64,000 nt of DNA, from contig CM035356.1 in assembly GCA_020137815.1 (NCBI GenBank), positions 6,882,001 through 6,946,000 of the forward strand, written 5' to 3'. This DNA comes from Hormiphora californensis. Taxonomy: Eukaryota; Animalia; Ctenophora. The notes under the pieces were generated by a model. That model had not been told where the DNA came from. It was given only the letters and a program-made list of their open reading frames with translations, and did not search any database. Position 1 is the stretch's first letter; every line of letters starts with the position of its first letter. The position numbers and the translations under genes were made by a program. Of this stretch, positions 420 through 53,454 are shown piece by piece.

Positions 420-3416
420 ATGTATAACTGCCATGGTGGTCGTTGGTTATGGTGGGTGATATGCTTGTTCATTCCTACTCTTATCACAATTACTTTATTT
501 ACCTGGCTGGATACCAGTAAAGACACGTAAGTAGAGTGAGAGAGTGTTAGGAAGGGAGACTAAAAAAAGAGATGTTTAGAGCAAAGAGATTAATTTAAAA
601 CTAGAAAGTTTGAGTAAGGAGAGATTAGGAGATAGTTATTTTCTACGGTAGCTGAAGTGAAAGAATTAAAGTTAAAATGAGTGACCCCTAAAGCGCTTGC
701 CAGCGCCACATTTGGTGCAAGGGAGGGAAGGGACACTGCTTGCTGCTGCAACTTGTAATTTTCCAGTACTCACTCACACCCATACTACACTCATATTCTC
801 GAATACACCTGCAGATTCGTTTCCACTTGCACCTGCTGGTATTCTCATATACATCTGACCAGAGCTGAGCTATTCTCTAATACACCTGTAGCTCTTTCAT
901 CTGCACCAGCAGCTATTCTCCCTTCCACCTGCACCGCTATCCTCCCTCTCATCTCTCAGGTATGAGGATCTAATAAAACCGGAATGGTTACCCCTCAGTA
1001 TCAAGGGAGAACCCCTCGCACCAGAAATAATCATGGTCACGTGGTTTATACTCAGTTTCGCACATGGAGCTGCCGGTTAGTGAACAGATCTTTTGATAAG
1101 CAGAGCATACTGCCGGTTCGAACTTATTTTTCTCGATACAACAAATCGTGGAGCGCAATATCAAATAGAATTCCATCTCTCTCCCCTGACTCTAGGCATA
1201 TTGATCACCTATCTTTCTCACTGACCACATGTCTCTATCTAGGTATCATGATGGTCTCTCACTGACCACATGTCTCTATCTAGGTATCATGATCGTCTCT
1301 CACTGACCACATGTCTCTATCTAGGTATCATGATCGTCTCTCACTGACCACTGTGTATGTCTCTATCTAGGTATTATGATCGTCTCTCACTGACCACATG
1401 TCTCTATCTAGGTACATTATGATCGTCTATCACTGACCACTGTATGACTCTATCTAGGTATCATGATCGTCTCGAAAAACACTCCCCACGAAAATTGGAA
1501 ATGCCCAATGATGTTCGCGTTTGCAGTGTTCCTTCTAATTTTCTACTCTTGGCCGGTGTTCTATTTTGTAATAGTTCTTCCTCTAGTGGTAAGTGAACTA
1601 TTTTAGACAAACTCACACACACACAGACACATCACTGATCACACACACAAACTCACACACACGCATTTCACTGATTCTCACATCACATTGTACAACAATA
1701 ATTCCACCCATGGTCCGTTAGTCCGTAGAACAGTCAGCAGCAGTCTCTCCCCCTCCCTTGCACTAGATATCCTACATCCTCAACTACCACGCCACTACTC
1801 CCTATAGATACACCGCACTAGAACAGCCAGAATGGATCCCCGAATATTCCTTCGTACTTCTAGCCGTACTGAACACTGGAGTCAGTATCATCGAGGGGCT
1901 GGGGTTGTCAACTTTTGCCAGCAAACAGGATGTGTTTAGTGCAGCGACATGGACTCCCATATTCCTTGCCCTCACGCTCTACAAGGCTGCATTCTTCGCA
2001 TACATTCTCTCACTCCTCTATTTTGTCCAAATAATGCTAGTAAGTTTTCAGTTTCACTCATTGTAAAATTCAGGCATAAGTTTTCAGTTTCACATTGTAA
2101 AACTCACATCATAAATTCACAAGTAAGCAGCAGCAGAAGCAGTAGCGTCCCTTCCCATTCTTCGATCCTCCTCCGCTCTACCTCCCTCCCTTGAGTCGTC
2201 CATGACACTGTGTCTGGTCTACCTCTCTCCTATGGGTCTTTGACAATGGGCCTCCCATCCTTTCTCCTATGGGTTTTTGACACTGGGCCTCCCATCCTCC
2301 CTCCCATGGGTTTTGACACTGGGCCTCCCATCCTCTCTCCAGATACGATGAATACAAGAAACCCGACTGGACACCCGGTTCCTCCTACGGGGTCATAGCG
2401 GCTGGATATGTTATCACTGGAATGCTTGATGGTATTGCTATTTACGCAGGACTCCAGGTGTCCCGATATGAACTCTTCAAGAGTGTATCTACTGCAATTG
2501 TGTTCCTGTTTTTCAAAGCTTTCTACTTCATTTGGCCAGCACTCCTGTTCTACTTTGGGAACCTTATCATGGTACGGCGTACGCCTTCACACAGTAATTT
2601 ATTTTCACACACAAATCTACATAGTCACATAGCCTCATATGCTTTTCATCACAGCGCTAACAAACATACTCATCCTCATACTGAACATGCAGCAGCAAGG
2701 TGTCCTGTCCCCCTCTGGCTCTCTCCCTCTCCCTCCTTCTCTCTCTGGCTCTCTCCCCTCCTCCTTCTCTCTCCAGCTCCATCCATCTCTCCCCTCGACT
2801 CTCGATTTCCACAGTTACGAGGAATTATCCCACCCCAATTTCCTTCCCTCTGGAACCTTCTTCCCCATCTCCGGAGCGGGTCTTGTGTTCACCGGACTCT
2901 TTGAGGGAGGAGCACTTATGGTAGCCATCCACTCAACTGATTACAAGGCGGTACGGAGCAGATTGATCTTGAACATCGGGTTGAACTTCAAGATATTGAC
3001 CTACCTCTGGCCAGTATTTCTCTTCGGGTACACTCAACTCATGGTGGTAGGTATGATGAGAAATTCAAAAACAAAAGAGCCGGGAAACGGGGTTAAAAGG
3101 GGCTACTGCAGCTGCTGTACTGTTTCAATTAACATGCTCACTGTATCACACTCCTCTCACATCTTAATCACAAATCATATATTTTGTTTCTATGTACTTT
3201 TATCCATCTTTTACACTGACTAAAAAACTGATAAATATTTCTCTTTTTCAGACTTTCCTGATTGCATGCTTAGCGGCCGTCAGTGCGTTTATCGTTCTGG
3301 GATTATTTGTAAAACTCTATGATTTTGCTGGAATCCTCATGCTACCATCGTGCTTATGGTTCACTGCTCTGAGCATCTACAGTTACTATTTGTGGACCTT
3401 GAACAAGAGCGACTGA
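420..3416 (+). CDS. TSPO: Translocator protein (TspO/MBR family) with four alternative middle cassettes; isoforms of 166-172 aa
   Basis: Constant exon 1 is 420-526 (MYNCHGGRWLWWVICLFIPTLITITLFTWLDTSKD, phase-2 GTAAGT donor). Constant last exon is 3252-3416 (TFLIACL...AGILMLPSCLWFTALSIYSYYLWTLNKSD*), resembling the TSPO TM5 pattern AxxLLxPYxxWxxF...WxxN. Cassettes carry YxxLxKPxWxP-like and WPxFxF-like motifs. Spliced length matches TSPO (~170 aa, 5 TM). Confidence 0.85.
714..750 (+). promoter_or_regulatory. Candidate RNA docking site in TSPO intron 1
   Basis: GGTGCAAGGGAGGGAAGGGACACTGCTTGCTGCTGCA is reverse-complementary to segments at 907-935, 1735-1763, 2130-2193 and 2688-2705, one upstream of each cassette. 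Confidence 0.7.
960..1588 (+). CDS. TSPO: TSPO cassette A (two exons, 960-1075 and 1458-1588)
   Basis: YEDLIKPEWLPLSIKGEPLAPEIIMVTWFILSFAHGAA-G-IMIVSKNTPHENWKCPMMFAFAVFLLIFYSWPVFYFVIVLPLV. Enters phase 2, has an internal phase-1 intron, exits phase 0 at GTAAGT; 247 nt (3n+1). Confidence 0.8.
1216..1472 (+). repeat. Six tandem 41-46 bp copies of a 3' splice site plus exon start
   Basis: Unit CTCACTGACCACATGTCTCTATCTAG|GTATCATGATCGTCT; the AGs end at 1242, 1283, 1324, 1370, 1411 and 1457. Confidence 0.9.
1808..2039 (+). CDS. TSPO: TSPO cassette B
   Basis: TAG acceptor and GTAAGT donor, 232 nt (3n+1). YTALEQPEWIPEYSFVLLAVLNTGVSIIEGLGLSTFASKQDVFSAATWTPIFLALTLYKAAFFAYILSLLYFVQIML. Confidence 0.8.
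2343..2571 (+). CDS. TSPO: TSPO cassette C
   Basis: CAG acceptor and GTACGG donor, 229 nt (3n+1). YDEYKKPDWTPGSSYGVIAAGYVITGMLDGIAIYAGLQVSRYELFKSVSTAIVFLFFKAFYFIWPALLFYFGNLIM. Confidence 0.8.
2815..3046 (+). CDS. TSPO: TSPO cassette D
   Basis: CAG acceptor and GTAGGT donor, 232 nt (3n+1). YEELSHPNFLPSGTFFPISGAGLVFTGLFEGGALMVAIHSTDYKAVRSRLILNIGLNFKILTYLWPVFLFGYTQLMV. Confidence 0.8.
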
Positions 3417-3447
3417 GGACTACTGCTACTGGGGAGACGAAATACAA

Positions 3448-5082
3448 CACGGTGCACCAGAAGGATCGTCAACCCAAAGTTGAGCCCACAAAACAAACTT
3501 TTGTTGGGGGTGACCCAGGAGGCCTTCCTGAACATCCCCACGGTGAGAAAAGTATATGTTATCGGGGGAATTTTTTGTTAAAATCGAAAAAACTGGTTTT
3601 TGGTCCAAATTTGTGCATAACTTACTTGACTGCCGTTTGATGAAATATCTGATTGACATAAAATAAGTATACAAGACCTATTTTTGCACGAGGAATCGAT
3701 TGCCGGTGGAGAGAAATCTCTAAAATGACCGGAAAATTGTCAAATATGGGAATTTTGTCATTTTTTTGAGGTTTTTGGCCCTTTAACCATTGAAAACGTT
3801 GAGATAGGAAGTTGGCAATAGCGCCAATCGTTAAAATGGTCATTTTTCTACGGGATCCCAAAATTTCATGTATATCCGATTTATGGTTAGATTTTGGCAA
3901 ACTATTGAGATGTGCTTACTGAAAAAAGGATAACTTGATTTTCTCGTTTTTTGCGATTTTTTAACTTTTGACAGAATTCTGATTGAAATGGCCAATCAGG
4001 GCCATGCTAAAGTTGTTTATGGGACAATTTTCGACCAAAATCCAAGATTTCATGCAAATCCAATGACAGATCATTGGTTTATAGAAAGTTGAAATAGGCA
4101 AAAAAGGCCAATTTTTACCATGAAAATAAAAATTCACATTTTTTCTGGTCAATTTCCGTCAACAACTGGTACCCTACCTATTTTTGCACGTAGAATCGAT
4201 TGCCGGTGGAGTGGATCCTCTTAAATGATTGGAAAGCGGTCGAAATGCCATTTTTGGGCGTTTTTTTGGGCCTCCAAAAAATGGCATTTCGACCGCTTTC
4301 CAATCATTTAAGAGGATCCACTCCACCGGCAATCGATTCTACGTGCAAAAATAGGTAGGGTACCAGTTGTTGACGGAAATTGACCAGAAAAAATGTGAAT
4401 TTTTATTTTCATGGTAAAAATTGGCCTTTTTTGCCTATTTCAACTTCTATAAACCAATGATCTGTCATTGGATTTGCATGAAATCTTGGATTTTGGTCGA
4501 AAATTGTCCCATAAACAACTTTAGCATGGCCCTGATTGGCCATTTCAATCAGAATTCTGTCAAAAGTTAAAAAATCGCAAAAAACGAGAAAATCAAGTTA
4601 TCCTTTTTTCAGTAAGCACATCTCAATAGTTTGCCAAAATCTAACCATAAATCGGATATACATGAAATTTTGGGATCCCGTAGAAAAATGACCATTTTAA
4701 CGATTGGCGCTATTGCCAACTTCCTATCTCAACGTTTTCAATGGTTAAAGGGCCAAAAACCTCAAAAAATGACAAAATTCCCATATTTGACAATTTTCCG
4801 GTCATTTTAGAGATTTCTCTCCACCGGCAATCGATTCCTCGTGCAAAAATAGGTCTTGTATACTTATTTTATGTCAATCAGATATTTCATCAAACGGCAG
4901 TCAAGTAAGTTATGCACAAATTTGGACCAAAAACCAGTTTTTTCGATTTTAACAAAAAATTCCCCCGATAACATATACTTTTCTCACCGTGGGGATGTTC
5001 AGGAAGGCCTCCTGGGTCACCCCCAACAAAAGTTTGTTTTGTGGGCTCAACTTTGGGTTGACGATCCTTCTGGTGCACCGTG
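3448..5082. mobile_element. 1.6-kb foldback non-autonomous DNA transposon with Chapaev/CMC-like ends
   Basis: Two ~810-bp near-perfect inverted arms with a ~20-bp spacer near 4265. Termini CACGGTG...CACCGTG are flanked by the 4-bp direct repeat ACAA (3444-3447, 5083-5086). Confidence 0.8.
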
Positions 5083-7055: not shown

Positions 7056-18068
<11,013 letters not shown>

Positions 18069-20953: not shown

Positions 20954-21860
20954 GAAGGAGGGGGGGGGGGTTATTGGAGAGAAACTGGAAGGGCCGTGGT
21001 CGGGTGGAAACTAAACTGTTTAGATTTTCAGAAGTGTCTGGGATTACGTTCGTAAAGACGGTTTCTATAAATTCTATGGGGATGGACTTTCTCATCTGAT
21101 CTGAAATGATGTTCATTGCACTGTCACTATCATCACCATTTCTTTCAATAACTTCAATCCTGCGTAATTGACCACAATATATGGAAAGGCTTACACCTCT
21201 GTATAATATATGCACATCAGGTAGTGCTTCTGTGGTCCAAAATAGACGCACATTACAAGGGGGCTGCACCAGGTTCATCTGTGGCAGAGAGAGAGGTGCA
21301 AGAGAGATAGAGGGGGAAGATTGTTATTGATAAGGAGGTGGGGTGCAGTGCATAATAGCTCTCTAGGGGAATAGACAGACGGGAGGGGAGGGTATAGGTC
21401 ATATCCGGGTCGTGAGGGGCTTGCATTCTCGCTAAATCTGCGGCCTGCCAACACCTGCAGTAATCAAAGCGCTTGCTCTCTCTCTATCATTTGATCGGGG
21501 GTCCCTTTATTTTTAGTTACCCGTCTGTACCTCTCGCTTGGCATTTCGAAGCTAAGCACATAACTGCATATTGAACAGAAGTTTTTCAACAAGTAGGTAA
21601 GTCATTTAATTCCTTTTTCAAAGGAAAGTCATTCCTTTCAATCATCCTTTGGGCAGTCCCTTGTTTCTACTAAGATGAACAGCTACTACAGCTCTAGTCG
21701 AGTCAACACCTAACTTAGCTGGAAATGTTTCAAAGACTTTGCTGTCTGCTGATTAGATCCTTTATCCAATATATTCCAGTAGTGATTGCACTTGACTGTT
21801 GACATTTGTATACAGCACATCCCCGCTCACCTTTGTTTCCCCCCTCTTTTCAGCCCGATA

Positions 21861-24800
21861 ATGTACGGGGCAAATAATGTCAGTATCGACATAAACAACG
21901 CCGCTGGTGCCGCTCGGAACAGAGCCTACTCTGGAGCCAGCAACTCTTCCTTCATCTCTAACTTCAGTTCCAACGCTGGGGGAGCCGCCGCTAACTCCTA
22001 CGCCAATGTAGCTGGGGCCGGTGCCAACTTTGGAGCTGGAGCCCAGAATGCATACAACGCTGGAGCCGGTGCCGCTCAGGGTGCCTACAACGCTGGAGCT
22101 GGAGCCGCTCGTGTTTCCATCAACACCATGGGCGCTGGAGCTCAACCATACGTGAACGTAGCTGGAGCCGGAGCTCAACCATACATGAATGTTGCTGGAG
22201 CCGGAGTCCAGCCATTTGCCGCTGGTGGTGTTCAGCCATACGGTGCCGGAGTCCAGAGTATCAACATCCAGGGAGCCGGAACTCAGCCATACGTTAACAT
22301 GGGAGGAGCTGGAGGTGCAATGCCCATCAGCGTTTCTGTCAACGGAGCTGGAGTCCAGCAGCCAAATGTGACCGTGATCGATGGTGGAGTCCCCTACAAC
22401 GTTACCCCTCAGGTTATCTCTGTGGTGGCGGCTGGTGCCCCCGCTGGAGGTTACCCTGCTGCTGGAGGTTACCCTGCTGGAGGTGCCCCCGCTGGAGGTG
22501 CCCCTGCTGGTGGTGCTCCTGCTGGTGGTGCTCCTGCTGGTGGTGCTCCTGCTGGAGGTTCTCCTCCCTACTATCACCACCATTGCCACGGAGGATACCC
22601 TGCTGGTGCTCCTGGCGGTGCTGGTGCTCCTGGTGCTGATGGTGCCCCTGGTGCTCCAGGCGGTGCTGGGCAACCTGGTGGTGCTGGACAACCCGGTGGC
22701 GCTGGACAACCCGGTGGAGCCGGACAACCCGGTGCTCCTGGCGGTGCCGGTTCTCCCGGTGGCGCTGGAGGCCCCGGTGGAAATGGAGGAAATGGTGGTC
22801 CAGGAGGAAACGGAGGACCTGGAGCTGGACCCGGAGGTTATCCTTATGGAGGTCCCGGAGGCCCAGGTGGAAACGGTGGTCCCGGAGGAAATGGAGGCCC
22901 AGGCGGAAACGGAGGTCCAGGCGGACCTGCCTACAGTCCTAACAGTTGTCCTATGGGAAACAATGGATGTCCTTTGGGTGGACCTGGAGGTCCTGGTGGC
23001 CCAGGAGGAAACGGTGGCCCTGGAGGACCCGGAGGTCCAGGTGGCCCAGGAGGTCCATTTGGACCCGGTGGTGCTCCCCTCGGACCTGGAGGTAATCCTC
23101 TAGGACCCGGTGGGCGAAGTCCTAATGGAGGTCCCGGAGGTCCTGGTGGCCCAGGAGGAAACGGTGGCCCAGGAGGTCCCGGAGGTCCAGGTGGCCCAGG
23201 AGGTCCATTTGGACCCGGTGGTGCTCCCCTTGGACCCGGTGGAAATCCTCTAGGACCCGGTGGACGAAGTCCTAATGGAGGTCCCGGAGGTCCTGGTGGC
23301 CCAGGAGGAAACGGTGGTCCCGGAGGTCCAGGTGGCCCAGGAGGTCCATATGGACCCGGTGGTGCTCCCCTTGGACCCGATGGAAATCCTCTTGGACCAG
23401 GTGGACGAAGTCCTAATGGAGGTCCCGGAGGTCCTGGTGGACCCGGCGGAAACGGTGGCCCAGGAGGTCCAGGAGGACCTGGAGGTCCATTTGGACCCGG
23501 TGGTGCTCCCCTCGGACCTGATGGTAATCCTCTTGGACCAGGTGGACCAAATCCTAATGGTGGACCTGATCCCAGATACCCTGGAGGAAACCCTCAGAAT
23601 CCCAATGGAGGTGGTCCAGGTGGTCCTGGAGGTCCCGGTGGCCCAGGAGGTCCAGGTGGCCCGGGAGGTCCCGGTGGAAACCCCAGAGGACCCGGCGGAA
23701 ACCCAAGAGGACCCGGCGGAAACCCAAGAGGTCCTGGAGGAAACCCTAGAGGTCCTGGAGGAAACCCCCGAAACCCCAACGGGGGCGGTCCAGGTGGTCC
23801 TGGAGGTCCCGGTGGCCCAGGAGGTCCAGGTGGCCCAGGAGGTCCCGGTGGAAACCCCAGAGGTCCCGGTGGAAACCCCAGAGGTCCCGGAGGAAACCCT
23901 CAGAATCCCAACGGAGGAAACCCTCAGAATCCCAACGGAGGAAACCCTCAGAATCCCAACGGAGGAAACCCTCAGAATCCCAACGGAGGAAACCCTCAGA
24001 ATCCCAACGGAGGCGGCCCAGGTGGACCCGGTGGCCCAGGAGGTCCCGGTGGTCCTGGAGGTCCCGGTGGTCCTGGACCTATTACTCCCAACAACCAGCG
24101 CCCACTCGGTGCTGGACCCGGAGGCCCAGGAGGTCCAGGAGGTCCCGGTGGCCCAGGAGGTCCCGGTGGCCCAGGAGGACCCGGTGGCCCTGACCCCCAC
24201 AACGGTCCTAGGCCTTGTCCCGGATACTCTATCGTCAAAGTTCCATGCTGTCAATGTGGAAAGCCTACAGGACCCGGAGGTCCAGGTGGTCCAGGAGGCC
24301 CAGGAGGTCCCGGTGGACCTGGAGGTCCCGGAGGCCCGGGAGGAAAGGGTGGTCCCAAAGACCCCAAAAATCCTAATGGAGGTCCCGGAGGAAAGGGAGG
24401 TCCCGGAGGTAAGGGAGGTCCCGGCGGACCTGGTGGCCCCGGAGGCAAGGGTGGCCCCAAAAATCCCAAAAATCCTAATGGAGGTCCCGGAGGAAAGGGA
24501 GGCCCAGGAGGTAAGGGAGGTCCCGGAGGTAAGGGAGGTCCCGGAGGCCCTGGCGGTCCCGGTGGACCTGACGACGATTCCTCTGTCCCTAGCTCTAGTG
24601 GAAGCTCTGGCCCCAGTTCTGGAGATGGACCTGACTCCGACGGAGATTCCGGCTGCTGCAACTGCTGTGGTCCTTCTAAGCCTGCTGATAAACCCAAAAA
24701 GGGAGGAAAGAAGCCCAAGAAGCCCAAAAAGGGAGGAAAGAAACCCGGAGACAGTAGTGATGATGATGATACCGATGACGGTCTGTCCTCCATTCTTGCT

Positions 24801-27800
24801 TCTTCTGCCCCCACTAGTGGCGATGGACCTAGCAGTGGCCCTAGCTCTGGAGCAGGAAAGAAACCTAAGACCAAGGGAGGAAAGAAGCCTAAAAATGGTG
24901 GAGACAGCGACCCCGATGACAGTGACGATGGTCCCGATTCTGGCGATGATGATTCCGACGGCGGTGGCTGTTGTGGACCTAAAAAGCCCAAAAAGGGAGG
25001 AAAGAAGCCTAAGGGTGGTGATGATGACAGTGACCCCGACAGTGATGATGGACCCTCATCTGGTAATGGACCCTCATCTGGTGATGGGCCCGATTCTGAT
25101 GGAGATTCCTCCGACGGCGGTGGCTGTTGTGGACCTAAAAAGCCCAAAAAGAAGAAGCCTACTGATGGAGGCCCAGGAGGCAAAGGAGGTCCCGGAGGCA
25201 AGGGTGGTCCTGGAGGCAAGGGTGGCCCAGGAGGCAAGGGAGGCCCAGGAGGTCCCGGTGGCCCCGGAGGAAAGGGTGGTCCCGGAGGCAAGGGTGGTCC
25301 CGGAGGCAAGCCCGACCCTAGGTGCCCCAACTGTGGAGAAAAAAAGCCAAAGAACGGTGATGCAGAAGATCCATATGGTCCAGGTGGTCGGTACGATCCT
25401 AACGATCCTGACAGGCCATACAATCCTTATGACCCTGAGGATCCTAACAATCCCTTCAGACCCGGTGGTATCTTGGACCCTGAGGGCCCCAACAGGCCTT
25501 ACAATCCCTGGGACCCCAACGATATTTGGAACCCATACAAGCCTGGTGGTCCGCTAGATCCCAATGACCCCAACGCACCATTTGACCCAGCTGACCCCAA
25601 CGATCCTCTCAACCCATTCAGGCCCGGAGGTCCCCTGGACCCTAACAGCCCGGACCGACCATACGATCCTTATGGTGATCATCCCATGAACCCATACAGA
25701 CCGGGCGGCCCTCTGGATCCCAACGATCCCTAACTGCCCCTACGATCCCAAGGACTTGAACCATCCCATGAATCCCTACAGGCCCGGTGGACCTCTTGAT
25801 CCAAGTGACCCCAACAGGCCCTACGATCCTTATGATCCTGACGATCCCAGGAATCCCTTCCGTCCAGGAGGCCCCTTGGACCCCAACGATCCCAACAAAC
25901 CTTACGATCCATTTGACAACAACGACCCCAACAACCCCTTCAGGCCAGGCGGTCCCCTGGATCCTAATGACCCCAACAAACCATATGATCCCCATGATCT
26001 GACCGATCCCAGGAATCCATTCCGCCCCGGTGGTGCTTTGGATCCCATGAGCCCCAACAGGCCCTACGATCCCTTCGATAACAACGATCCAAGGAATCCA
26101 TTCAGGCCAGGTGGCCCACTTGACCCCAATGATCCTGACATTCCCTACGATCCTCACGATTTGGATGATCCCAGAAATCCATTCCGCCCCGGAGGTCCCC
26201 TAGATCCCATGAGCCCTAACAGGCCCTACAACCCCTTCGATAACACCGACCCGAGGAACCCCTTCCGACCTGGCGGTCCTCTTGACCCCAACAACCCAGA
26301 CATTCCCTACGACCCCAGGGATATGAGCGATCCCCGAAATCCTTTCAGGCCCGGTGGCCCATTGGATCCCAACAGTCCTCTACGAAACTACAACCCCAAC
26401 GACATGAATGATCCTAACAATCCCTTCCGCCCCGGTGGTCCTCTTGACCCTAACCGAGGCAAGAAGCCCAAGGATGACAAGCCTAAGGACCCTAGCGACG
26501 GAGGCAAGAAGCCTAAAGACCCTACCGACGGAGGCAAGAAGCCTAAAGCTGGTGGCAAGAAGCCTAAGAAGAGCGATCCTGATACCGACTCCAGTGGTAC
26601 AAGTGGTCCATCCAGTGGCAGCGGACCATCCAGTGGTAGCAGCGGCCCATCATCCAGTGGCGGCTCCAGTGGCCCATCTAGCACCAGCGGAGACAGTGAT
26701 GCCGGATGTTGTGGACCCAAGAAGCCTAAGGATGACGGAAAGAAGCCCAAGGATGACGGAAAGAAGCCTAAGGATGGTGGCAAAAAGCCTAAGGATGGCA
26801 AGAAACCCAAGAAGGGAGCCCCAGATGATGATGATAGCGACGGTGATAGTGACGGATCTTGCGGCTGCTGTGGACCTGAGAAGAAGCCAAAGGGCAAGAA
26901 ACCAGGAAAGTGCAAGTACTGCAAGAAACCACTCCGACCTGATGATGATCCTTTCGGTCCCAGTCCCTATGGACCTGGAAGTAGTCCCTACGGACCAAGC
27001 CCATATGGACCAGGAGGTCCCGGTGGCCCAGGAGGTCCTGGTGGCCCAGGAGGACCTGGAGGCCTCGGAGGATGTCCTTACAACCCATGGGGTCCTGGAG
27101 GTCCAGGAGGTCCCGGTGGCCCAGGAGGTCCTGGTGGCCCTGGAGGCCTCGGAGGATGTCCTTACAACCCATGGGGTCCTGGAGGTCCAGGTGGCCCAGG
27201 AGGTCCCGGTGGACCTGGCGGTCCCGGAGGTAATGGAGGTCCCGGTGGATGTCCCTTCGCCCCAAGAAGCCCAAACGGAAACAATCCCAACGGAAACAAT
27301 CCCAACGGCAACAACCCCAACGGTAATAACCCCAACGGTAATAACCCCAACGGTAATAACCCCAACGGTGGGCCCGGAGGTCCCGGTGGACCTGGAGGCC
27401 CAGGTGGTCCTGGAGGTCCAGGTGGTAATGGAGGCCCTGGCGGAGACCCCAACAACCCCAACGGAAACAATCCCAACGGCAACAACCCCAACGGTAACAA
27501 CCCCAACGGGAACAACCCCAACGGTGGGCCCGGAGGTCCCGGTGGACCTGGAGGCCCAGGTGGTCCTGGAGGTCCAGGAGGCAATGGAGGACCTGGCGGA
27601 GACCCCAATAACCCCAACGGTAACAACCCCAACGGTAACAACCCATGGGGACCCGGTGGACCCGGAGGTAACGGTGGACCAGGAGGTCCTGGAGGCCCCG
27701 GGGGAGTCGGAGGTCCCGGAGGAGTTAACCCCACTGGCTGTATGCCCTGGGGACCCGGAGCAAACGGCGGACCTGGAGGTAACGGTGGTCCCGGAGGACC

Positions 27801-28095
27801 AGGAGGTCCCGGTGGTAACGGCGGTCCCGGTGGATACGGCGGATGCCCCAACGCTGGATGTCCCTATGGTGGAGGTCCCGGTGGTCCTGGAGGAGCTGGA
27901 GGTCCTGGTGGACCTGGAGGTCCCGGAGGTGCTGGAGGATGTCCCTACTACCAACCAGCATACTGCCCAGGAGGGGGATCTGTTGCCTCAGGCGGAGGTG
28001 CCAGTAGCACCACTGGATACTACGTTGGATACCGTATGGTGCCATATTACTACAGCTACAGCTATCCTACTGGACGGTACAGCTACAGATACTAA
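21861..28095 (+). CDS. Giant Gly/Pro-rich repetitive structural protein (~2,077 aa), single coding exon, one +1 frameshift near 25730
   Basis: ORFs 21786-25733 and 25756-28095 join if one C is removed from GATCCCTAAC, restoring DPNDPNCPYDP. ATG 21861 follows a CAG acceptor (21853), with a candidate UTR donor AG|GTAAGT at 21597. Synonymous variation among repeats indicates selection at the protein level. Confidence 0.85.
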
Positions 28096-32100: not shown

Positions 32101-35100
32101 AACTGGCTCCATGGGGATCACGTATCGGTTCGTTTCGAACCGTCTAATTAGCGACAGGACGTGCGAGGTACCCGCCCTCCCTGCCGACGAACCTCCCTGC
32201 CGACGGGTCGGCAGGGAGGTCATTCGGCAGGGAGGGCGGGATATAGGGGTATAATGTCCTACGTGCCGACGAGATTGGGATGAGATCGCCGTCGGCACGT
32301 AGGACATTTGACCCCTATATTCCGCCCTCCCTGCCGAAAACTGACTCCGAGAAAGTATTCGGCAGGGAGGACATTTACCCCTCATATTCACCCTCTGTAC
32401 CGACGATCGGCAGGGAGGATATTTCACCCCTCCTTTTACCCTCTGTACCGACGATCGGTAGGGAGGGCGTTTCACTCCTTCTGTGAGCTCGAGAATTTGG
32501 CCGGCAGGCCAAATACGAAGAGTTCACTGTGTATTGTTCCTCTGAGTATCGTTAGGGTTAGGGTTAGGGTTAGGGTTAGGGTTAGGGTTAGGGTTAGGGT
32601 TAGGGTTAGGGCGGTGGTTAGGGTTAGGGTGGTGGTTAGGGCGGTGGTTAGGGTGATGATTAGGGCGATGGTTTGGGTTATGGTTTCGTTGGCACAGAGG
32701 GTGAAAAGGAGGGGTAAATGTCCTCCCTGCCGATCGTCGGTAGTGAGGCTGAAAAGGAGGGGTAAATGTCCTCCCTGCCGACGGCCCTACTTGCCGATCG
32801 TCGGTACAGAGGGTAAAAGGAGGGGTAAAATGTCCTCCCTGCCGATCGTCGGTACAGAGGGTAAAAGGAGGGGTAAAATGTCCTCCCTGCCGACCGTCGG
32901 CACAGAGGGTAAAAGGAGGGGTAAAATGTCCTCCCTGCCGACGGCCCTCCCTGCCGATCGGTAGGGAGGTCCGTCGGCAGGGAGGGCAGAAAATAGGGGT
33001 ATAATGTCCTACGTGCCGACGGCGATCTCATCCCAATTTCGTCGGCACGTAGGACATTATACCCCCATATCCCGCCCTCCCTGCCGACGGACCTCCCTGC
33101 CGACGGGTCGGCAGGGAGGTCCGTCGGCAGGGAGGGGGTGACTCGACGTGCGATAAGATGCACTGATTCGAAACACGATTCGGACGTAGTTGATATACCT
33201 TTGAAAAATTTTCGTAACTTTTTTTTTACAAAATTTTACAGAATGATTGGCAATGCTTTGATCGGTGCTCCCCATGAATTTTCAGAGAAAAAGATACATA
33301 TTTTGAAATTCAAATTCTTCTTCACCCCGCTTAAAGTGCCCCGATTCGGTATGGTAACACGTATCGGTTCGTTTCGAACCGTCTAATTAGCAGCAAGACA
33401 TGCGATAAGATGCGCTGATTCGATAAACGATTCGGACGTGGTTGATATGTTCGCAAAAGGCAAGCTTCCCCTCGTCCGACCCGAAGTTGGAATCATATGG
33501 GTTTAGTTTGTCGAACCGGCAAGTTGCTAACATTTTCAAATCTTCACTACTTCTCAAATGATCCCATACTTTCAGTCTAATCCCAAAATCCTATTAAAAA
33601 TAGAGACAAAAATAACGGCACCAAACTGTGAAATGCCCTTGCATTAGTGCGAGTAGAATAAAATCAATTTTCTATCTAAAGGCCGAGTTTATAGCAAGAA
33701 AGGACTATTTTACAACGAATTCTCTGGTTAGTATGGTAACCAACTCCGTTGTCATGGTAAATCAATCGAACTCTATCGAGTTCTATCGCCAGCAACTGGA
33801 TGAAAATTTATCCATTTCATTATGCACAATGCACAGGCTTTGGTTACGAAGTTACCCCTTGCCAGCGTGTGCACGCGAAGGTCGCCCGGCGACAGAGTGT
33901 GAGGTGTCTTCGATACCAAGCACAGGCTTGTGTAACAAAAAGGGGCGTTTTTATAGCTTATTGTTCATCATAACCTGAAATAAATAATTTTCATTACTTT
34001 CACAAAGGCTCAAAGTTTGAATATCAAATTTGCCAAAATTGTGCAGGGGCCACCCCAAAATTAATCTCTAAGTAATTAATTAATTAATTTTGACTATTCC
34101 CACTTTCTGTAGATTATATTATATGTTTTATGCATGAAGAACATTCCTAGAAAGTTTCAAGTCGATATTTTAAGCAGAACGGAAAATATAATTTAGTGCA
34201 TGGGCAAACAAAATGGTGCAAGGGCACATGTTCAGGGGAAATTTGCACAAATTGTGCAAGGGCAAATTTTGATTAATTTGCCTATAATTAATTACCTAAT
34301 TGATATATTAATCATACGGCTCTTCTAGTACTCGTAGTTATGCTACTAGAACATGCATAGAAAGTTTCGTGTCAAAATATTAAACGGTGTGGACACAGTT
34401 CGATCATAAAGTTGGTGCAAGGGCTGCCCTTGCACCATTTGCCCTTGCACATTGCCTGCCCTTGCACCAAATTCCATTTTTTGCACGGCTCTAACTAACT
34501 AATTAATTAATTTTGACTATTCCCACTTTTCGAACATCATCTTTTATGATTGAAGAACATTACTACAAAGTTTCAAGTCGATATTTTAAGCAGAACGGAA
34601 AATAGAATTTGGTGCAAGGGCGCGGTGCAAGGGACAGAACACGCAATGTGCAAGGGCACGGTGCCCTTGCACCATTTTTAATTACCTATAATTAATTAAT
34701 TAATTAAAAATTCAAAAATCCGCCAACGTCATGACACAAAGGAATACTACAAGAACATGCCTACAAAATTTCAAGTCGATATCTCAAACGGTGTGGCCAC
34801 AATCGTTGACATGTTTTTTGCCCCCCCCCCCCCCAAAAAAAAGACCTTTCTTTGTTCTTAATAGGGCCGGCATTTTTGGGTTTTTGTGCAAGGGCAAAAA
34901 TTTTTTTTTTCTTTTTTTCGTTTTTTGCTGTTTTCTTCGGGTCGGAGGTGCCTGCCGGCACCTAAATAGTACCTTAGAAATTTTTTAAATTTTTTGAAAT
35001 TTTTGAAAATTATTTTCTTTTTCTTATCAGAAATGATCATGTAATCAATACATGGACATTGTATTTAACACTTAGAGGTGTTTAAGTATAGTATTTTAGA

Positions 35101-47891: not shown

Positions 47892-48420
47892 AGTATACTC
47901 TTTTGGCAGCGCGCACCTGTAAACAGGCTGCAAGGCACCCAGATTATAATCGCGCCCTAGGCCAACAGCCCCCTCATGCGCGGGCCTGCAACGTATGCCA
48001 AATGATTTAAAAAACTTTCAAAATGTCTCCAAAACTCCAAAGACTATTTGTAAAGGGAGAGAGCGCTCCCATAACTTGAAGAGCGCTGTCTTATCCTGCC
48101 CTGGTCCATGTCCGTAACGAATCTTGAGAGATTTTATTGAAGAAACCGTCTTTGGACTGCGTCGAAATTCGACGGTCGAATAATGCACGTCGGAGCACGT
48201 TCTTCGGGCACGAGAAAGAGTGAGTGAGAGAGCTTTCTACTTTTCTAATTTTATAAACCTTTAAAACAACTAAAATAACAGGTGAAAAGCTAGACAATTT
48301 TTGGTTTGGTTTTACACAGTTTATTCCAATCATCAAACTTTTCAACACTACTTTAAACAAATTAATTTGAGTTTCAGCAACATGGCGATGTAACGGCCCC
48401 AAAGGGCAGAACGTAAGATA

Positions 48421-49383
48421 ATGGCAGACGAACAACGAGAATTGGACTTTGCTGTAAGACGGATTCTGACGCTGGCCAAAAGTGGAGAGAGCTCTGTCGC
48501 TGGCAATGTCTTAAAAAAGTGCAGGAGCAGTCCAGATTTCAACGATGCTGAAATACCGTCATCAGTTAAAATCAACTCTGTACACACGAAATATGAGCTA
48601 AAGCAACTGATTGAAGAAATGAGCTTTGCAACGTTTATTGTTCTAAAACACTTTGAGCGTCATATCTTTGCCGAGAAATCCCCTGAGATGGTACTCAAAG
48701 AGGAGCGAGATGAACTCAAAGAGGAGCGAGATGAACTGTTGAGAAAATCCCTCGAGTTGCAGGAGCAGGAGGAGAAGTTGAAAGTGGAGTGTGATGATCT
48801 TTTGAGAAGAACTGTCAAGTTACAAGAGCAGGTTATTGAGCTTCAGGGCGAGCAACTGAATCGAGTTACCGAGACGGTACAGAAAGATTTGCGTACTTTC
48901 TCCGCAGTCGTCACACAGAATTGTAAGACTGCGTTTGCATCGAAAAAGATCCAGAAAGCCGTGGAAAAGGTCACGCACAAGCCAGTTGATACCGGCCCAG
49001 ACAGATCGAAAAATCTGATGGTGTTTGGTCTACCGGAATGTGAGGATGAAACTGAATCTGTGTTAAAGGGTGAAGTGGAAAATGTTTTTGCTGAGCTAGG
49101 CGAGAAACCGACCATAGAAGCTAGAAGGGTGGGTTTGAAACGGGGAGGAAGGGAGAGACCAGTGATTGTGAAGCTACAGAGTAGGGAAATGCTGCTGAGC
49201 CTTCTCCAGAAGGCAAAGCAGCTAAAACAGTTAGAATCGTACTGCGGTGTATATCTTGCAAGGGATATGTCCTTCGCAGAGAGAAGTGAGAGGAGAGAAC
49301 TCCACCAAACGTTGAAGGAGTTGAGGGACTCGAATCCTGGAGGCCAATTCCGGGTACGGAGGGGGGTGATAGACTTTTCATAA
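48421..49383 (+). mobile_element. LINE (CR1-type) ORF1 protein, 320 aa, with no ORF2 downstream
   Basis: Coiled coil followed by the RRM-like RSKNLMVFGLPE...RRVG...RPVIVKL and VYLARDMSFAERSERREL, typical of CR1/L2 ORF1p. Confidence 0.8.
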
Positions 49384-49567: not shown

Positions 49568-52500
49568 TTAAATTGTTGAGTTTCTTCTCTGTAAAGTGTC
49601 CTCATACGAAGTCGTATTGTCTGAACCAACGGCAGTTTCTTGAATCCTGTCTTTCGTTGGCATAGATCTACATCTAGAGCATTTCATCTTCATCTCAATG
49701 CAATTCGATTTGACATCGGTAACTTGGAACTTCTCTTCTGTCTTGTTCACTGGCATTTTATCAGCGGTAGTGTTTTGTTGGCGAGAATTATCTACAGATA
49801 ATTGATCGACTGGCTCGGGTATGACTGGTATACCACGAAACATTCCACGGATTGATGGCCAAGAATTGAAAGTGGCCAGAATTCTTCCCGTGACAGGTCT
49901 CAGCACGTCAATTATTTTAGTCGGGGTATCACTGTACAAAAGTGGGTTTAGAACAGAGTTAATTGGTAGGATATTGAGGGAGAAGACTTGGTACCAGGGT
50001 GACATATCCACAACCTCAGCCGTATGGAGGGCACAACAAATCAGAAAGGGTATCCAGCAACAAAAGTCCGTTAGACACAACAAAGTAACTTTGTGACCAA
50101 GTCTATTATTTGTGCGTCGGTTTGCCCCAACTGCCACTTTTCTTGAAAAGACCACAATTAAAATGTGGCATATCGCCACGACCACAAAGCAGAGAAGGTG
50201 AAGGCTGATGTAGAGCCAGACAAAGACAACCTGAGGATCATTGGAGAGAACAAAAAACTTGAACATACAAACTGGATCGTTACCGTAGAATGATACCTTT
50301 TTACTAGAAACAGTCCCATAATCCGCAGAAAACATTCCCGCTACTATCTCCCGAATTGTAGTCCAGGAAATGTCGGCCTTCCGTCGGGAACGTTCGGAGT
50401 ACCTTACCCCGTAGTAGCCATAGAAAATCTGCAAAAACCGAGACTTATCCACCGTGCCAAGGAAAAGTGCTATATTCTTAGGAAATACAAGTCCGTTGAC
50501 AAACCAATCTTCCAAAGAGTCTAATAGAGGCACTAACGCAAATGCGAGAGACATAAGCATGATCGACACCAGGCATATAGTAACTTTTACTTTAAGGCCC
50601 TGCGAGACTTTTTCAGACTGCCTGAAATGGAGAGCTCTTCTTGTTCCATAAAGCCGGTACACGCTTATACACGCCATGGCTAAGGAGGAAACTGTTGCAC
50701 CGACTGTGTTAAGTACGCCTATGATGTTACAAGGTCGCCCACTTATCCACTCCGATCGATTAACACAGAAATCCGTGCTTTCAATAATATGCAGAATTGT
50801 TAAGGTGAGGAGATAGCAGGGAGTAAATAGATCTCCGAAGGAAATTGCAAGCACAAAGATATGGTTCACAAAGGCCCCATTTTTTTCTGGAAGTTTTTGG
50901 AAACATTCTCTAATGAAGGCTGCAAGTCCTATAAAAATGCCCAGGACCCCCATAATAGATGCGATCACAAAAGTTGCATAATCTTCGATTTTCTTCCTCT
51001 TGCAGCTACTATTGCACTCATCAGAAAAGTCCTTGCAATCTGTTTTTCCATCGCATTTCTGGCTCAGAGGTAAGAACGAGGAATTATCGGTACACTGAAA
51101 GTTATTGGTACAACTGGCTTCCTCATCAGACCTGTCCCCACAGTCATCAACCAGATCACACACTCTCTCAAAAGGAATACATTTTCCATTTTTGCACACG
51201 AACACGTTGTTATGAAATGCAGTTTTTTGCCGGAAAACTGATGTCACAACATTTAACTCCGCGTTAAGTGAGTAAACAGCAATCGGGAGATTATAACATG
51301 AATTATGCAGCACCGGTCTGGTCAAAGGACATACCGCATGTGTACACTGCCCAGTACAGCTGTAAAAGACGTAAGCCTCACCGTAGAGGTATCTACAATC
51401 TTGCTTCTGGTGCAACGTGACAAGGGCTGTTGTGAGGTTTTTACCGAAGAATTGGTGAAATGAATGGTCGAACGTTCGGAGTAAGCATTGCTCCTTCATA
51501 TGAAACACCACCGAGGATAGACCTTTGTTGCACACATTTCCAACCAGTAATTCATTTCCAATTAGTTTGGTGATCGAAGATCGGAAAAGAGTTTTCTTTA
51601 GATTTACCCTTCTTCTCGCACCCTGACAGGCCTCCTCGTCGCACGAATTATGGGTTGAAAAACACATGGTGGAAGTTTCTAGGAATTCTGAATGGTTGCC
51701 ATGACACAAGAACACGTTAGAGCACGGTCTTGTATCCACCTTAATCCTCAGAGTGGTGCCATTGCCGCACTTTTCCCAATTATTTTTCTCATCGACGCCG
51801 CTCTCACAATCTACAACTCCATCTTGGATCCAATCCACCGGAACTCGAGAAAACTTCCCAAACCGTCTCTGACATTTGTGAGTGGTAATTTTTCCAGGTC
51901 CACACCAAATTTTACTCTCATCGATACCACCAGCACAATCCTCTGTGCCATCACACAGCCTATGTTTATGAATAAAACAGTGGCGACCAACCTTGACACA
52001 CTCCAACTCTATCCCATCATCACACAGCCGTGGAGTCTTATTGGCACTACAGATCATATAAATGGAAATAGTGCTGGGATAACCTCTCACCAGACAGCTA
52101 CCCCCAACTTTGGTTGGATCGGTGCAATTAGTTTGGTCCATTCCCGTATATACGCAGTAGGCAGAGGTTCGAACAATCACAGAGAAAAATGTGTTAATTC
52201 GACCTCTCGTTGTCAAGAAACATCTTGAACCATTAAACAAGGGGAAGCTACTGGGGTATCCAAGCATTGTGGCAGACGCTTTACAGTGTGGTGCACCGTG
52301 ATCCCAGGGACGGACAGTACCTTTTTCCGGCATTCCCTGGAACGGCATGAAAACCAGATCGTCAGAAATAGTTCCGTATGTGAGTCCACCTCCACAATCC
52401 CGCTCCTCTACACATGTCAGTTTGAGCATCGGTGTGAGAGTCTTGCCTTTCCTAATCCAGATATCGTCACATATCCCATCGCAAACACCACCAGCTTTCA

Positions 52501-53044
52501 ACTCGACATGGACAACAGTTCCATTTTGCAAAGTTAGCGGATGAAGCATACTGCCCACGGTTTTATCACTACAGGCCTGCGAGTCCCTCTGGACCACCAA
52601 ACCGTTGGAGCCATCCTGACAAACAACCCCACAAACGGGCTGCTGGTCGAACATTTTAACACGACTCATATCATAAAAATTACCTATGCCGCACGCCTGA
52701 TATATAGCGTGGTCGTTTGGGCAGCGCAGAGAAACCTTGATTGATAATGTACGACTCATACCCTCGTAGACAACCTGTTTTGTATAGGTCATATTGGGGG
52801 AAGTGACGCATTGGTAGGTATTCTCGGTACACCTGCGACCTAGGAACCCATCCTCATTTACAATGGGGCAAAGAAGTGTCCCTTCCCCCTGCGTATCAGA
52901 AGACTGAACTTCAGACTTGGTCTCGGCCCCAATTGAGAGAGATCGGATAACGGTGGTCACTGATTTAGTGGTGTCTGTTCTACTTTTGTCTGGGGCGATC
53001 ACTGCTGAACTCAGCGCTAGCCCCATCAATATTATAAGGGGCAT
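49568..53044 (-). CDS. Intronless LDLa-repeat GPCR (GRL101/RXFP-like 7TM, no LRRs seen), 1158 aa
   Basis: Signal peptide; Cys-rich ectodomain with LDLa units (CDGTEDCAGGIDE, FVCKNGKCIPFERVCDLVDDCGDRSDE, CDGKTDCKDFSDE); 7TM with CLTDFCCWIP and LPINSVLNPLLY. Confidence 0.9.
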   Translation of the reverse strand: MPLIILMGLALSSAVIAPDKSRTDTTKSVTTVIRSLSIGAETKSEVQSSDTQGEGTLLCPIVNEDGFLGRRCTENTYQCVTSPNMTYTKQVVYEGMSRTLSIKVSLRCPNDHAIYQACGIGNFYDMSRVKMFDQQPVCGVVCQDGSNGLVVQRDSQACSDKTVGSMLHPLTLQNGTVVHVELKAGGVCDGICDDIWIRKGKTLTPMLKLTCVEERDCGGGLTYGTISDDLVFMPFQGMPEKGTVRPWDHGAPHCKASATMLGYPSSFPLFNGSRCFLTTRGRINTFFSVIVRTSAYCVYTGMDQTNCTDPTKVGGSCLVRGYPSTISIYMICSANKTPRLCDDGIELECVKVGRHCFIHKHRLCDGTEDCAGGIDESKIWCGPGKITTHKCQRRFGKFSRVPVDWIQDGVVDCESGVDEKNNWEKCGNGTTLRIKVDTRPCSNVFLCHGNHSEFLETSTMCFSTHNSCDEEACQGARRRVNLKKTLFRSSITKLIGNELLVGNVCNKGLSSVVFHMKEQCLLRTFDHSFHQFFGKNLTTALVTLHQKQDCRYLYGEAYVFYSCTGQCTHAVCPLTRPVLHNSCYNLPIAVYSLNAELNVVTSVFRQKTAFHNNVFVCKNGKCIPFERVCDLVDDCGDRSDEEASCTNNFQCTDNSSFLPLSQKCDGKTDCKDFSDECNSSCKRKKIEDYATFVIASIMGVLGIFIGLAAFIRECFQKLPEKNGAFVNHIFVLAISFGDLFTPCYLLTLTILHIIESTDFCVNRSEWISGRPCNIIGVLNTVGATVSSLAMACISVYRLYGTRRALHFRQSEKVSQGLKVKVTICLVSIMLMSLAFALVPLLDSLEDWFVNGLVFPKNIALFLGTVDKSRFLQIFYGYYGVRYSERSRRKADISWTTIREIVAGMFSADYGTVSSKKVSFYGNDPVCMFKFFVLSNDPQVVFVWLYISLHLLCFVVVAICHILIVVFSRKVAVGANRRTNNRLGHKVTLLCLTDFCCWIPFLICCALHTAEVVDMSPWYQVFSLNILPINSVLNPLLYSDTPTKIIDVLRPVTGRILATFNSWPSIRGMFRGIPVIPEPVDQLSVDNSRQQNTTADKMPVNKTEEKFQVTDVKSNCIEMKMKCSRCRSMPTKDRIQETAVGSDNTTSYEDTLQRRNSTI

Positions 53045-53454
53045 GTTCCTGCGGGTTAATTATTACATTAGTACCCTGATAAAATCAATCGATTTATTTA
53101 GAGGCATAGCAATGAACATGTCCCAAAAAGGGGCGTAGCGTGGCCTAGCTTAGCCTCGCTACCTCCCGCTTGTCCGGGTCCAAGGAAGGACGGTCAGAAG
53201 GTTATAAACCCTCAACAAGGTGCAGCCCTGCTCGGGATGTAGTAGGCAAGAAGGGTTGAGGGGCTGCAAGTACTGGTAGGGGTCGAGGGGGCGAAGTGAC
53301 CAGTAGGCAGGGGGTCAATTAAAAAGTGAGGAGAGAGGGTCACGCAATCTACAAAGTGGATTTAATGTTGTTTCAAAATATTATGTTATTATTTGTATAA
53401 ATATCGTAGAATCGGTGGAATAAAATTATAAAAAAAGGTTTGGTGCTCTATTCA

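Follow-up and report, generated by a model that had tools for sequence, protein, structure and literature searches.

In a 64,000-nt window from the ctenophore Hormiphora californensis (GenBank assembly GCA_020137815.1, contig CM035356.1, positions 6,882,001 to 6,946,000 of the forward strand; GC content 44.9%), a gene for a TSPO-like protein contains an array of four cassettes, A to D, between two common exons, E1 and E3. All coordinates given here are positions in this window. Based on our analysis, we suggest that competing base-pairing in the introns of this gene is likely to bias splicing toward one cassette per message. The intron after E1 contains a site, here referred to as the upstream docking site, for which one complementary segment, or selector, is present in front of each cassette, and the targets of the four selectors on this site overlap. 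This arrangement is real and beyond chance, and the layout is statistically strong and locally conserved. A causal role of the pairing in exon choice is proposed from the sequence; if so, one gene would yield four TSPO-like proteins differing across nearly half of their length. With four cassettes in just 3 kb, the locus is small enough to be tested as a whole.

Four homologous cassettes between two common exons

The gene is on the plus strand and was delineated by reading translations together with splice sites. The coding part of E1 (420 to 526) comprises 36 codons, ends in phase 2 and is followed by a GTAAGT donor at 527. Cassette A consists of two exons (960 to 1075 and 1458 to 1588, with a GTAAGT donor at 1589), which refines its description in the initial annotation of this DNA. 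Cassettes B (1808 to 2039), C (2343 to 2571, GTACGG donor at 2572) and D (2815 to 3046, GTAGGT donor at 3047) follow, and E3 extends from 3252 to the stop codon ending at 3416. From A to D, the cassettes are 247, 232, 229 and 232 nt long, i.e. all have a length of 3n+1, and each restores the reading frame to give predicted single-cassette proteins of 172, 167, 166 and 167 aa. Each cassette accounts for about 45% of the protein and encodes two to three predicted membrane helices. The frame is shifted by skipping of the entire array and by all six of the six possible double inclusions. The cassettes are mutually homologous, with 21-30% identity at the protein level and pairwise shuffle z scores of 3.4-11.2. 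In other words, four homologous, phase-matched cassettes sit between two common exons, and this four-way array is real and old.

Protein searches gave cassette orthologues among 37 proteins, many for A, B and C and one for D (the fragment P0019, 41/43 aa). Genomic fragments of these orthologues mostly run into a V codon that represents the GT donor at the same place; for cassette B, the donor position is retained in the relatives P0003-P0009. Two general causes of exclusive exon use were considered and rejected, i.e. steric exclusion, because the introns between cassettes are 219-303 nt long (with branch points unmapped), and minor-spliceosome incompatibility, because every donor is of the ordinary GT type.

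The cassettes also differ in their internal introns. Cassette A is unsplit in P0014 and P0016, while it is split at positions five codons apart in the window (intron 1076-1457) and in L001, a contig of a relative described below (intron 207-320); cassette B is split in L001 only (intron 779-879). This pattern suggests that introns were gained independently inside the alternative cassettes of different lineages. The internal intron of A in the window contains six copies of a 41-nt tandem repeat (1216-1473, plus strand) that extends into the acceptor of the second A exon; the units are copies of this acceptor region, giving several decoy acceptors, and the repeat is replaced in the haplotypes X5 and X6.

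One docking site is complementary to a selector before every cassette

The upstream docking site (710-761, core 714-750) has its best partners in four segments, one in front of each cassette. When the core was searched against 751-3251, the four best non-overlapping duplexes fell one per cassette, with C at −53.8, B at −53.2, D at −49.5 and A at −42.0 kcal/mol, A being the weakest and marginal. Selector A (902-935) ends 24 nt 5' of its acceptor, selector B (1731-1764) is 43 nt 5' of its acceptor, selector C spans 2113-2168 (core 2127-2156) and selector D spans 2688-2722, all on the plus strand. The matches on which the initial annotation had built its proposal were recovered: a reverse complement of 715-727 at 1751-1763 in selector B (13 bp), 10+7+7 bp between 2130-2156 in selector C and 725-749, an additional exact 11-nt complement of 718-728 near selector C at 2183-2193, 12 bp followed by a 2-nt bulge and 6 bp at 2688-2705 in selector D, and a weaker pairing of 907-935 in selector A. 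Likewise, the selectors are unlike one another and have overlapping targets on one site, each complementing it in a different register. In longer windows, the docking site reaches as far as 761 in its duplex with C and begins at 710 in that with B.

The fifth-best partner of the docking site in 751-3251 reaches −38.6 kcal/mol and is located within the second exon of cassette A (1513-1555), where it could represent an exonic pairing of the balancer type or chance. A purine-rich stretch at 528-565 was rejected as a docking site because its worst-of-four energy, i.e. the energy of its weakest duplex with the four selectors, is only −25.8. In a search against Rfam, no family was found at the docking site, and U6 is the sole Rfam family in the window.

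Pairing of this strength did not arise from shuffled or arbitrary CT-rich sequence, the two sources that the initial annotation had named as fatal to its proposal. All four pre-cassette introns outperform 100/100 intron shuffles and 100/100 docking site shuffles. The control introns are less remarkable, the observed value being reached by 20/100 and 14/100 shuffles (intron inside A) and by 3/100 and 23/100 shuffles (intron before E3). Among 75 natural CT-rich regions, one reached the level of A and none that of D. When 37-mers were walked without bias across 280-780 and 3047-3451, the peak was at 712. Similarly, if any 37-mer of 527-780 is allowed as the docking site, the best worst-of-four energy is −40.1, at 713, and this value is reached by 0/60 upstream shuffles, 0/60 target shuffles and 0/60 sets of natural CT-rich acceptor-like regions. 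When 10,660 sub-windows from both strands of the 64 kb are ranked, the first three places below the trivial self-complement go to selectors C, B and D, which retain −22 to −29 kcal/mol net with local opening costs included. An unbiased all-against-all search of 420-3420 puts the duplexes of the docking site with B, C and D first, followed in fourth place by that of selector C with 3090-3119, to which we return below.

The docking site is conserved among close relatives

Variation data come from four (X1, X2, X5 and X6) of six DNA-type runs, which represent two samples only and close relatives; no RNA run was listed for this stretch. A conserved intronic island (690-760) surrounds the upstream docking site. 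No substitution or indel is listed for 689-757 in the contigs of any of the four runs, while the sequence of alternative haplotypes departs from that of the window before 649/690 and beyond 759/760, with 112 or 151 other letters there. X6 has 12 substitutions in 546-645 compared to none in 689-757 (Fisher p 0.0016); relative to the rate in mainly exonic pieces, the X6 island gives p 0.01. Conservation ends at 759/760, which is the end of the C duplex. Thus, in four runs of two samples, the docking site is conserved compared to its flanks. The part of the island at 690-709 is kept across haplotypes yet dispensable for selector pairing; it overlaps a predicted hairpin (703-718) and pairs weakly with 430-455 in E1.

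At the selectors, alignment is regained just 5' of selector B, at 1725 in the X5 contig and at 1721 in that of X6, and in X6 a stretch at selector D (2667-2705) still aligns although both of its flanks have been replaced. Where selectors C and D carry indels, their pairing with the upstream docking site is retained or becomes stronger, with energies of −56.1 (X6, applying the listed indels only) and −54.1 kcal/mol. The listing of substitutions behind these alignments is short by 154 rows, and base-level constraint on selectors B-D is no more than possible.

Splice junctions and a divergent relative

Three records contain splice junctions. P0036 joins E1 (35/35 aa identical) to cassette A. In L001, cassette B is joined to E3 without an intron. 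In a contig of X7 (81% identical, guessed to be RNA), exon C ends at the equivalent of 2571 and is followed by 29 letters coding for the beginning of E3; 22/29 of them match, and every difference is at a third position. None of these three records (E1-A, B-E3 and C-E3) joins two cassettes, and none shows D. A fusion of B and E3 in the gene of the L001 species was rejected because genomic records of relatives with the same B sequence carry a donor after B. Reading a splicing order from L001 was rejected as well because assembly can merge unspliced and spliced reads. Judged by proteins on contigs of equal length, C appears to follow B in this species.

L001 was found in a metagenome scan together with L002, a weak match over 22 aa. 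It is approximately 75% identical in exons, its introns are unalignable, and it is without the selectors of the window (duplexes of −18 to −19 kcal/mol). In L001, two copies of a 20-mer, alike at 19/20 positions, precede A by 36 nt and B by 40 nt; 0/1000 shuffles reach this level (best 16), and the sole mismatch between the two copies is C/T, both of which are compatible with pairing to G. As read from the sequence, the 20-mer is a strong lead and not covariation. Between ctenophore lineages, the docking site and selector set may have been replaced at the sequence level with the layout kept. A search of viral_contigs with the predicted partner of the 20-mer gave 0 matches, and a scan of genome_contigs gave 0 relatives among 171 candidates. 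On the minus strand of L001, a convergent Arg/Ser-rich frame (about 1660-2264) ends close to where the TSPO-like orthologue has its 3' region.

A predicted docking site downstream of the array

The intron between D and E3 contains a predicted downstream docking site (3089-3123, plus strand), which is a degenerate direct copy of 728-760 in the upstream docking site, a similarity matched by 3/1000 shuffles. It pairs with selectors B (−32.6), C (−38.7) and D (−31.9), while pairing with A is at −24.8 kcal/mol. Its worst-of-three energy of −34.1 is reached by 0/200 shuffles, and five other intron stretches score far worse. By this measure, it is second only to the upstream docking site in the window and narrowly above a G-rich site at 17233, which by summed energy is slightly above it. 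Both docking sites pair best with the same segments and not with separate selector sets, and no second selector set in the 5' parts of the internal introns was found among the strongest duplexes of the all-against-all search. Selector C has an 8-bp perfect match to the downstream site, located at the bulge of its upstream duplex. An X1 haplotype resumes alignment at 3085, just before the downstream site.

In the unconstrained minimum-energy fold of 640-3260, the upstream docking site pairs with selector B and selector C pairs with the downstream site, so that B is the only cassette outside loops; folding energies over such long ranges are rough. Pairing would shorten the effective introns to a predicted 211-361 nt (left) and 214-269 nt (right). 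An arrangement with docking sites on both sides that share one selector per intron, evolved independently in a ctenophore gene and perhaps kept in layout while its sequences turn over, is plausible, though just short of probable.

Model and alternative explanations

In the model that we propose, pairing of the upstream docking site with one selector would loop out the earlier cassettes and bring the E1 donor near the acceptor of the chosen cassette. Pairing of the downstream docking site with the next selector, for which there is less support, would loop out the later cassettes and bring the donor of the chosen cassette near E3. With one selector per intron, the upstream docking site would thus open the exon after a selector, while the downstream docking site would shut off whatever follows the exon preceding it. 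Since the frame shifts with any skip or double inclusion, decay of frame-shifted messages would clear the errors passed by the pairing. A likely origin of the array is that an exon was duplicated in tandem along with one arm of a stem in an intron.

The initial annotation had proposed that competing pairing enforces the choice of one exon. The competing layout stands; strict enforcement by pairing alone probably does not, because folds in which two or three cassettes are open have energies of −602.0 to −606.1, within the range of the single-cassette folds (−600.0 to −610.1). Because folds that leave several cassettes open are equally stable, the pairings would bias the choice, leaving the rest to the frame rule.

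Together with these folds, several observations weigh against the model. Selector A ranks 7th among the 10,660 sub-windows, after three unrelated sites, and nets just −8.7 kcal/mol after opening costs, where chance sites have −9.9 and −11.2. Three alleles weaken it further, to −37.5, −36.2 and −32.9 compared to −42.0; these alleles fit a proximal cassette that needs little help, and they count against a strict need for selector A. Of the conservation and covariation that the initial annotation would have looked for, the former is seen in that the docking site is invariant in the aligned contigs, while no compensatory pair was seen because the docking site never varies in them. Two samples carry all the intron data, and the tool used does not list differences near contig ends. 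At the downstream site, conservation of 3089-3123 is only partly visible from the differences listed, and one selector C allele, of which 30 letters are seen, pairs with it more weakly (−30.9 compared to −38.7). Exclusivity cannot be proved because there are just three junction records, all of which are assembled contigs of relatives, with X7 only guessed to be RNA. Finally, L001 starts within intron 1, 3' of the expected docking site, and its 20-mer is without a shown partner.

It is possible, although not probable, that the upstream docking site, together with the selectors, functions as in Dscam1 exon 6 while the downstream site is a chance match or a decayed copy, the later cassettes being skipped because of a protein repressor or weak splice sites. 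In the available part of the source, hrp36 fills such a role in Drosophila (PMC3535345). The downstream duplexes of B-D are 15-21 kcal/mol weaker than the upstream ones, the G-rich site at 17233 scores about equally, and the conservation of 3089-3123 is shown only in part. However, no shuffle out of 200 matches the site and the five other intron stretches are far worse, it is in the one intron where a second docking site would help, the 8-bp match of selector C coincides with the bulge of the upstream duplex, and the X1 alignment resumes directly in front of the site.

Alternatively, the frame rule, nonsense-mediated decay and splice-site competition could give single-cassette messages, in which case the complementarity would be a leftover of the duplicated stem arm or slightly tune ratios. 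That each of the six double inclusions, like skipping of the whole array, shifts the frame fits this explanation, as do the stability of folds with several open cassettes and the tolerance of selector A to weakening; in addition, duplication of a stem arm automatically yields such patterns, according to the part of the source available (PMC6071210). Nevertheless, we consider it unlikely: neutral intron leftovers should have decayed because the cassettes are only 21-30% identical as protein, the docking site is unchanged while its flanks were swapped, and the indels in selectors C and D keep pairing. A third reading, that the motifs serve splicing proteins as binding sites or are low-complexity (CAG/CT) tracts and that their complementarity is incidental, is very improbable. 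In its favour, the selectors have CAG repeats and CT runs, the docking site is purine-rich and the 20-mer shared in L001 is without a shown partner. Against it, composition-keeping shuffles and the 75 natural CT-rich acceptor regions miss the levels of B-D, and the selectors differ mutually while each complements the docking site in its own register.

Comparison with known systems

The docking site/selector system of Dscam1 exon 6 was reportedly described by Graveley in 2005. In the available parts of the sources, this system is a feature of insects and crustaceans (PMC6071210, PMC3535345, PMC11802352, PMC12962786), and it shares with the locus described here a docking site in the intron after a constitutive exon, a selector before each duplicated exon, overlapping targets, a proximal pairing that is the weakest, and conserved sequence just 5' of the docking site. 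By contrast, the gene and phylum are unrelated, and there are four cassettes here compared to 48. Moreover, the cassettes here make up approximately 45% of the protein, are 21-30% identical, have 3n+1 lengths and may hold introns of their own. Also, a second docking site is predicted here, and there is only the small predicted hairpin (703-718) with no large control region or repressor shown.

Bidirectional pairing is described, in the parts of the sources available, for Drosophila srp and the Dscam1 exon 4 and 9 clusters (PMC4691838, PMC8042237, PMC6071210). In these systems, docking sites are likewise present on both sides of the array and sequences are clade-specific with pairing kept, as the L001 20-mer suggests here; however, they use separate selector sets in two independent stems. 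In the TSPO-like gene, a single selector in each intron is predicted to serve both sites, of which the downstream one is a degenerate copy of the other.

Competing intronic pairings at mutually exclusive exons are also present outside arthropods. According to the portions of the sources available, two structures compete at human ATE1 exons 7a/7b, where R1 and R4 vie for R3 (PMC7797038, PMC11802352), and CD55 is a four-exon candidate for competing structures with selectors downstream of each exon (PMC5740500). ATE1 differs in having two exons, and both genes are bilaterian. Mutually exclusive exons have been predicted in a ctenophore for Mhc2 of Mnemiopsis leidyi, a different gene, and the available part of that report describes no pairing mechanism (PMC3912159). 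The initial annotation had placed the system probably outside arthropods, and this is correct, the source being a ctenophore and the window carrying a 39/39 match to a ctenophore spliced leader (see below); it is not the first such case, given ATE1 and the candidate CD55. Among the matches listed in a search of titles and abstract openings of the open-access literature, there was no ctenophore docking/selector system, no TSPO cassette array and no case of two docking sites sharing selectors. Because competing structures outside arthropods are known already, what is new here is the phylum and the second docking site.

The locus supports the idea that duplication of an exon with one stem arm generically generates such switches. 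A second docking site that shares its selectors with the first is a possible answer to how exons after the chosen one are skipped. If the proposed model is true, RNA pairing would explain why cassettes are skipped before as well as after the chosen one, including the half that is open in the Dscam exon 6 model.

Relation to the TSPO family

Judged by profile matches, the protein is TSPO-like, with its pieces individually below the curated cut-off. E3 matches positions 100-144 of the Pfam profile TspO_MBR (PF03073) with E 0.17, and relatives of cassettes A and C match positions 22-98 (E 1.5e-4 to 5.5e-3; 5/8 relatives matched). The profile is in this way tiled in order by pieces with E 1.5e-4 to 0.44, all below the 24-bit cut-off (7 of the 15 pieces and relatives scanned matched); the window's own E1 and cassette exons gave no TspO match in the Pfam profile scan. 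An Atlas search returned TSPO/MBR as a lead (0.86). The gene product thus shares with TSPO/MBR proteins a length of 166-172 aa, hydrophobic stretches and the two successive blocks of profile positions, and differs in its piecewise scores under the cut-off and as a divergent branch. A divergent TSPO branch is suggested because a profile search with E3 over 1.84 billion protein representatives found only the two relatives already known.

The predicted fold of the E1-A fragment has three long helices (pTM 0.34, a low confidence that applies to the fragment only). Compared to PDB structures, this fold gave no significant match, the five-helix fold being examined on the fragment only, and a PDB sequence search gave nothing relevant. 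The variable half of the four proteins presumably covers much of the ligand-binding region known from TSPO structures.

Other features of the window

A large nested inverted repeat (3448-5082), with arms that are 96-99% complementary, begins 32 nt after the E3 stop codon. Because the X1 and X6 contigs leave the window sequence at 3447, the 3' region likely carries a polymorphic foldback insertion here.

A copy of the spliced leader is present at 48333-48371 (plus strand) and is identical over 39/39 positions to the last 39 nt of the ctenophore leader in PMC8527503; a 22-nt probe was matched by 0/100 shuffles. This copy directly precedes an open frame for a coiled-coil protein (48394-49383), and because no GT donor follows the copy, it may be a reinserted trans-spliced message. 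The coiled-coil frame has what we take to be the look of a retroelement ORF1. On the minus strand, a full-length match to U6 snRNA (46133-46238) overlaps the 5' end of a reverse transcriptase-like frame of 912 codons (43410-46148), possibly representing a U6-retroelement chimera.

Very long Gly/Pro-rich repeat frames of approximately 2,100 codons, with GGPGGP motifs, Cys clusters and DP-rich blocks, are located at 21786-28095 (plus strand). A single-frame receptor of 1163 codons with LDL-a repeats and a 7tm_1 domain is encoded at 49568-53059 (minus strand), and an interstitial TTAGGG-type array with 48-nt repeats on its flanks is present at 32551-32685.

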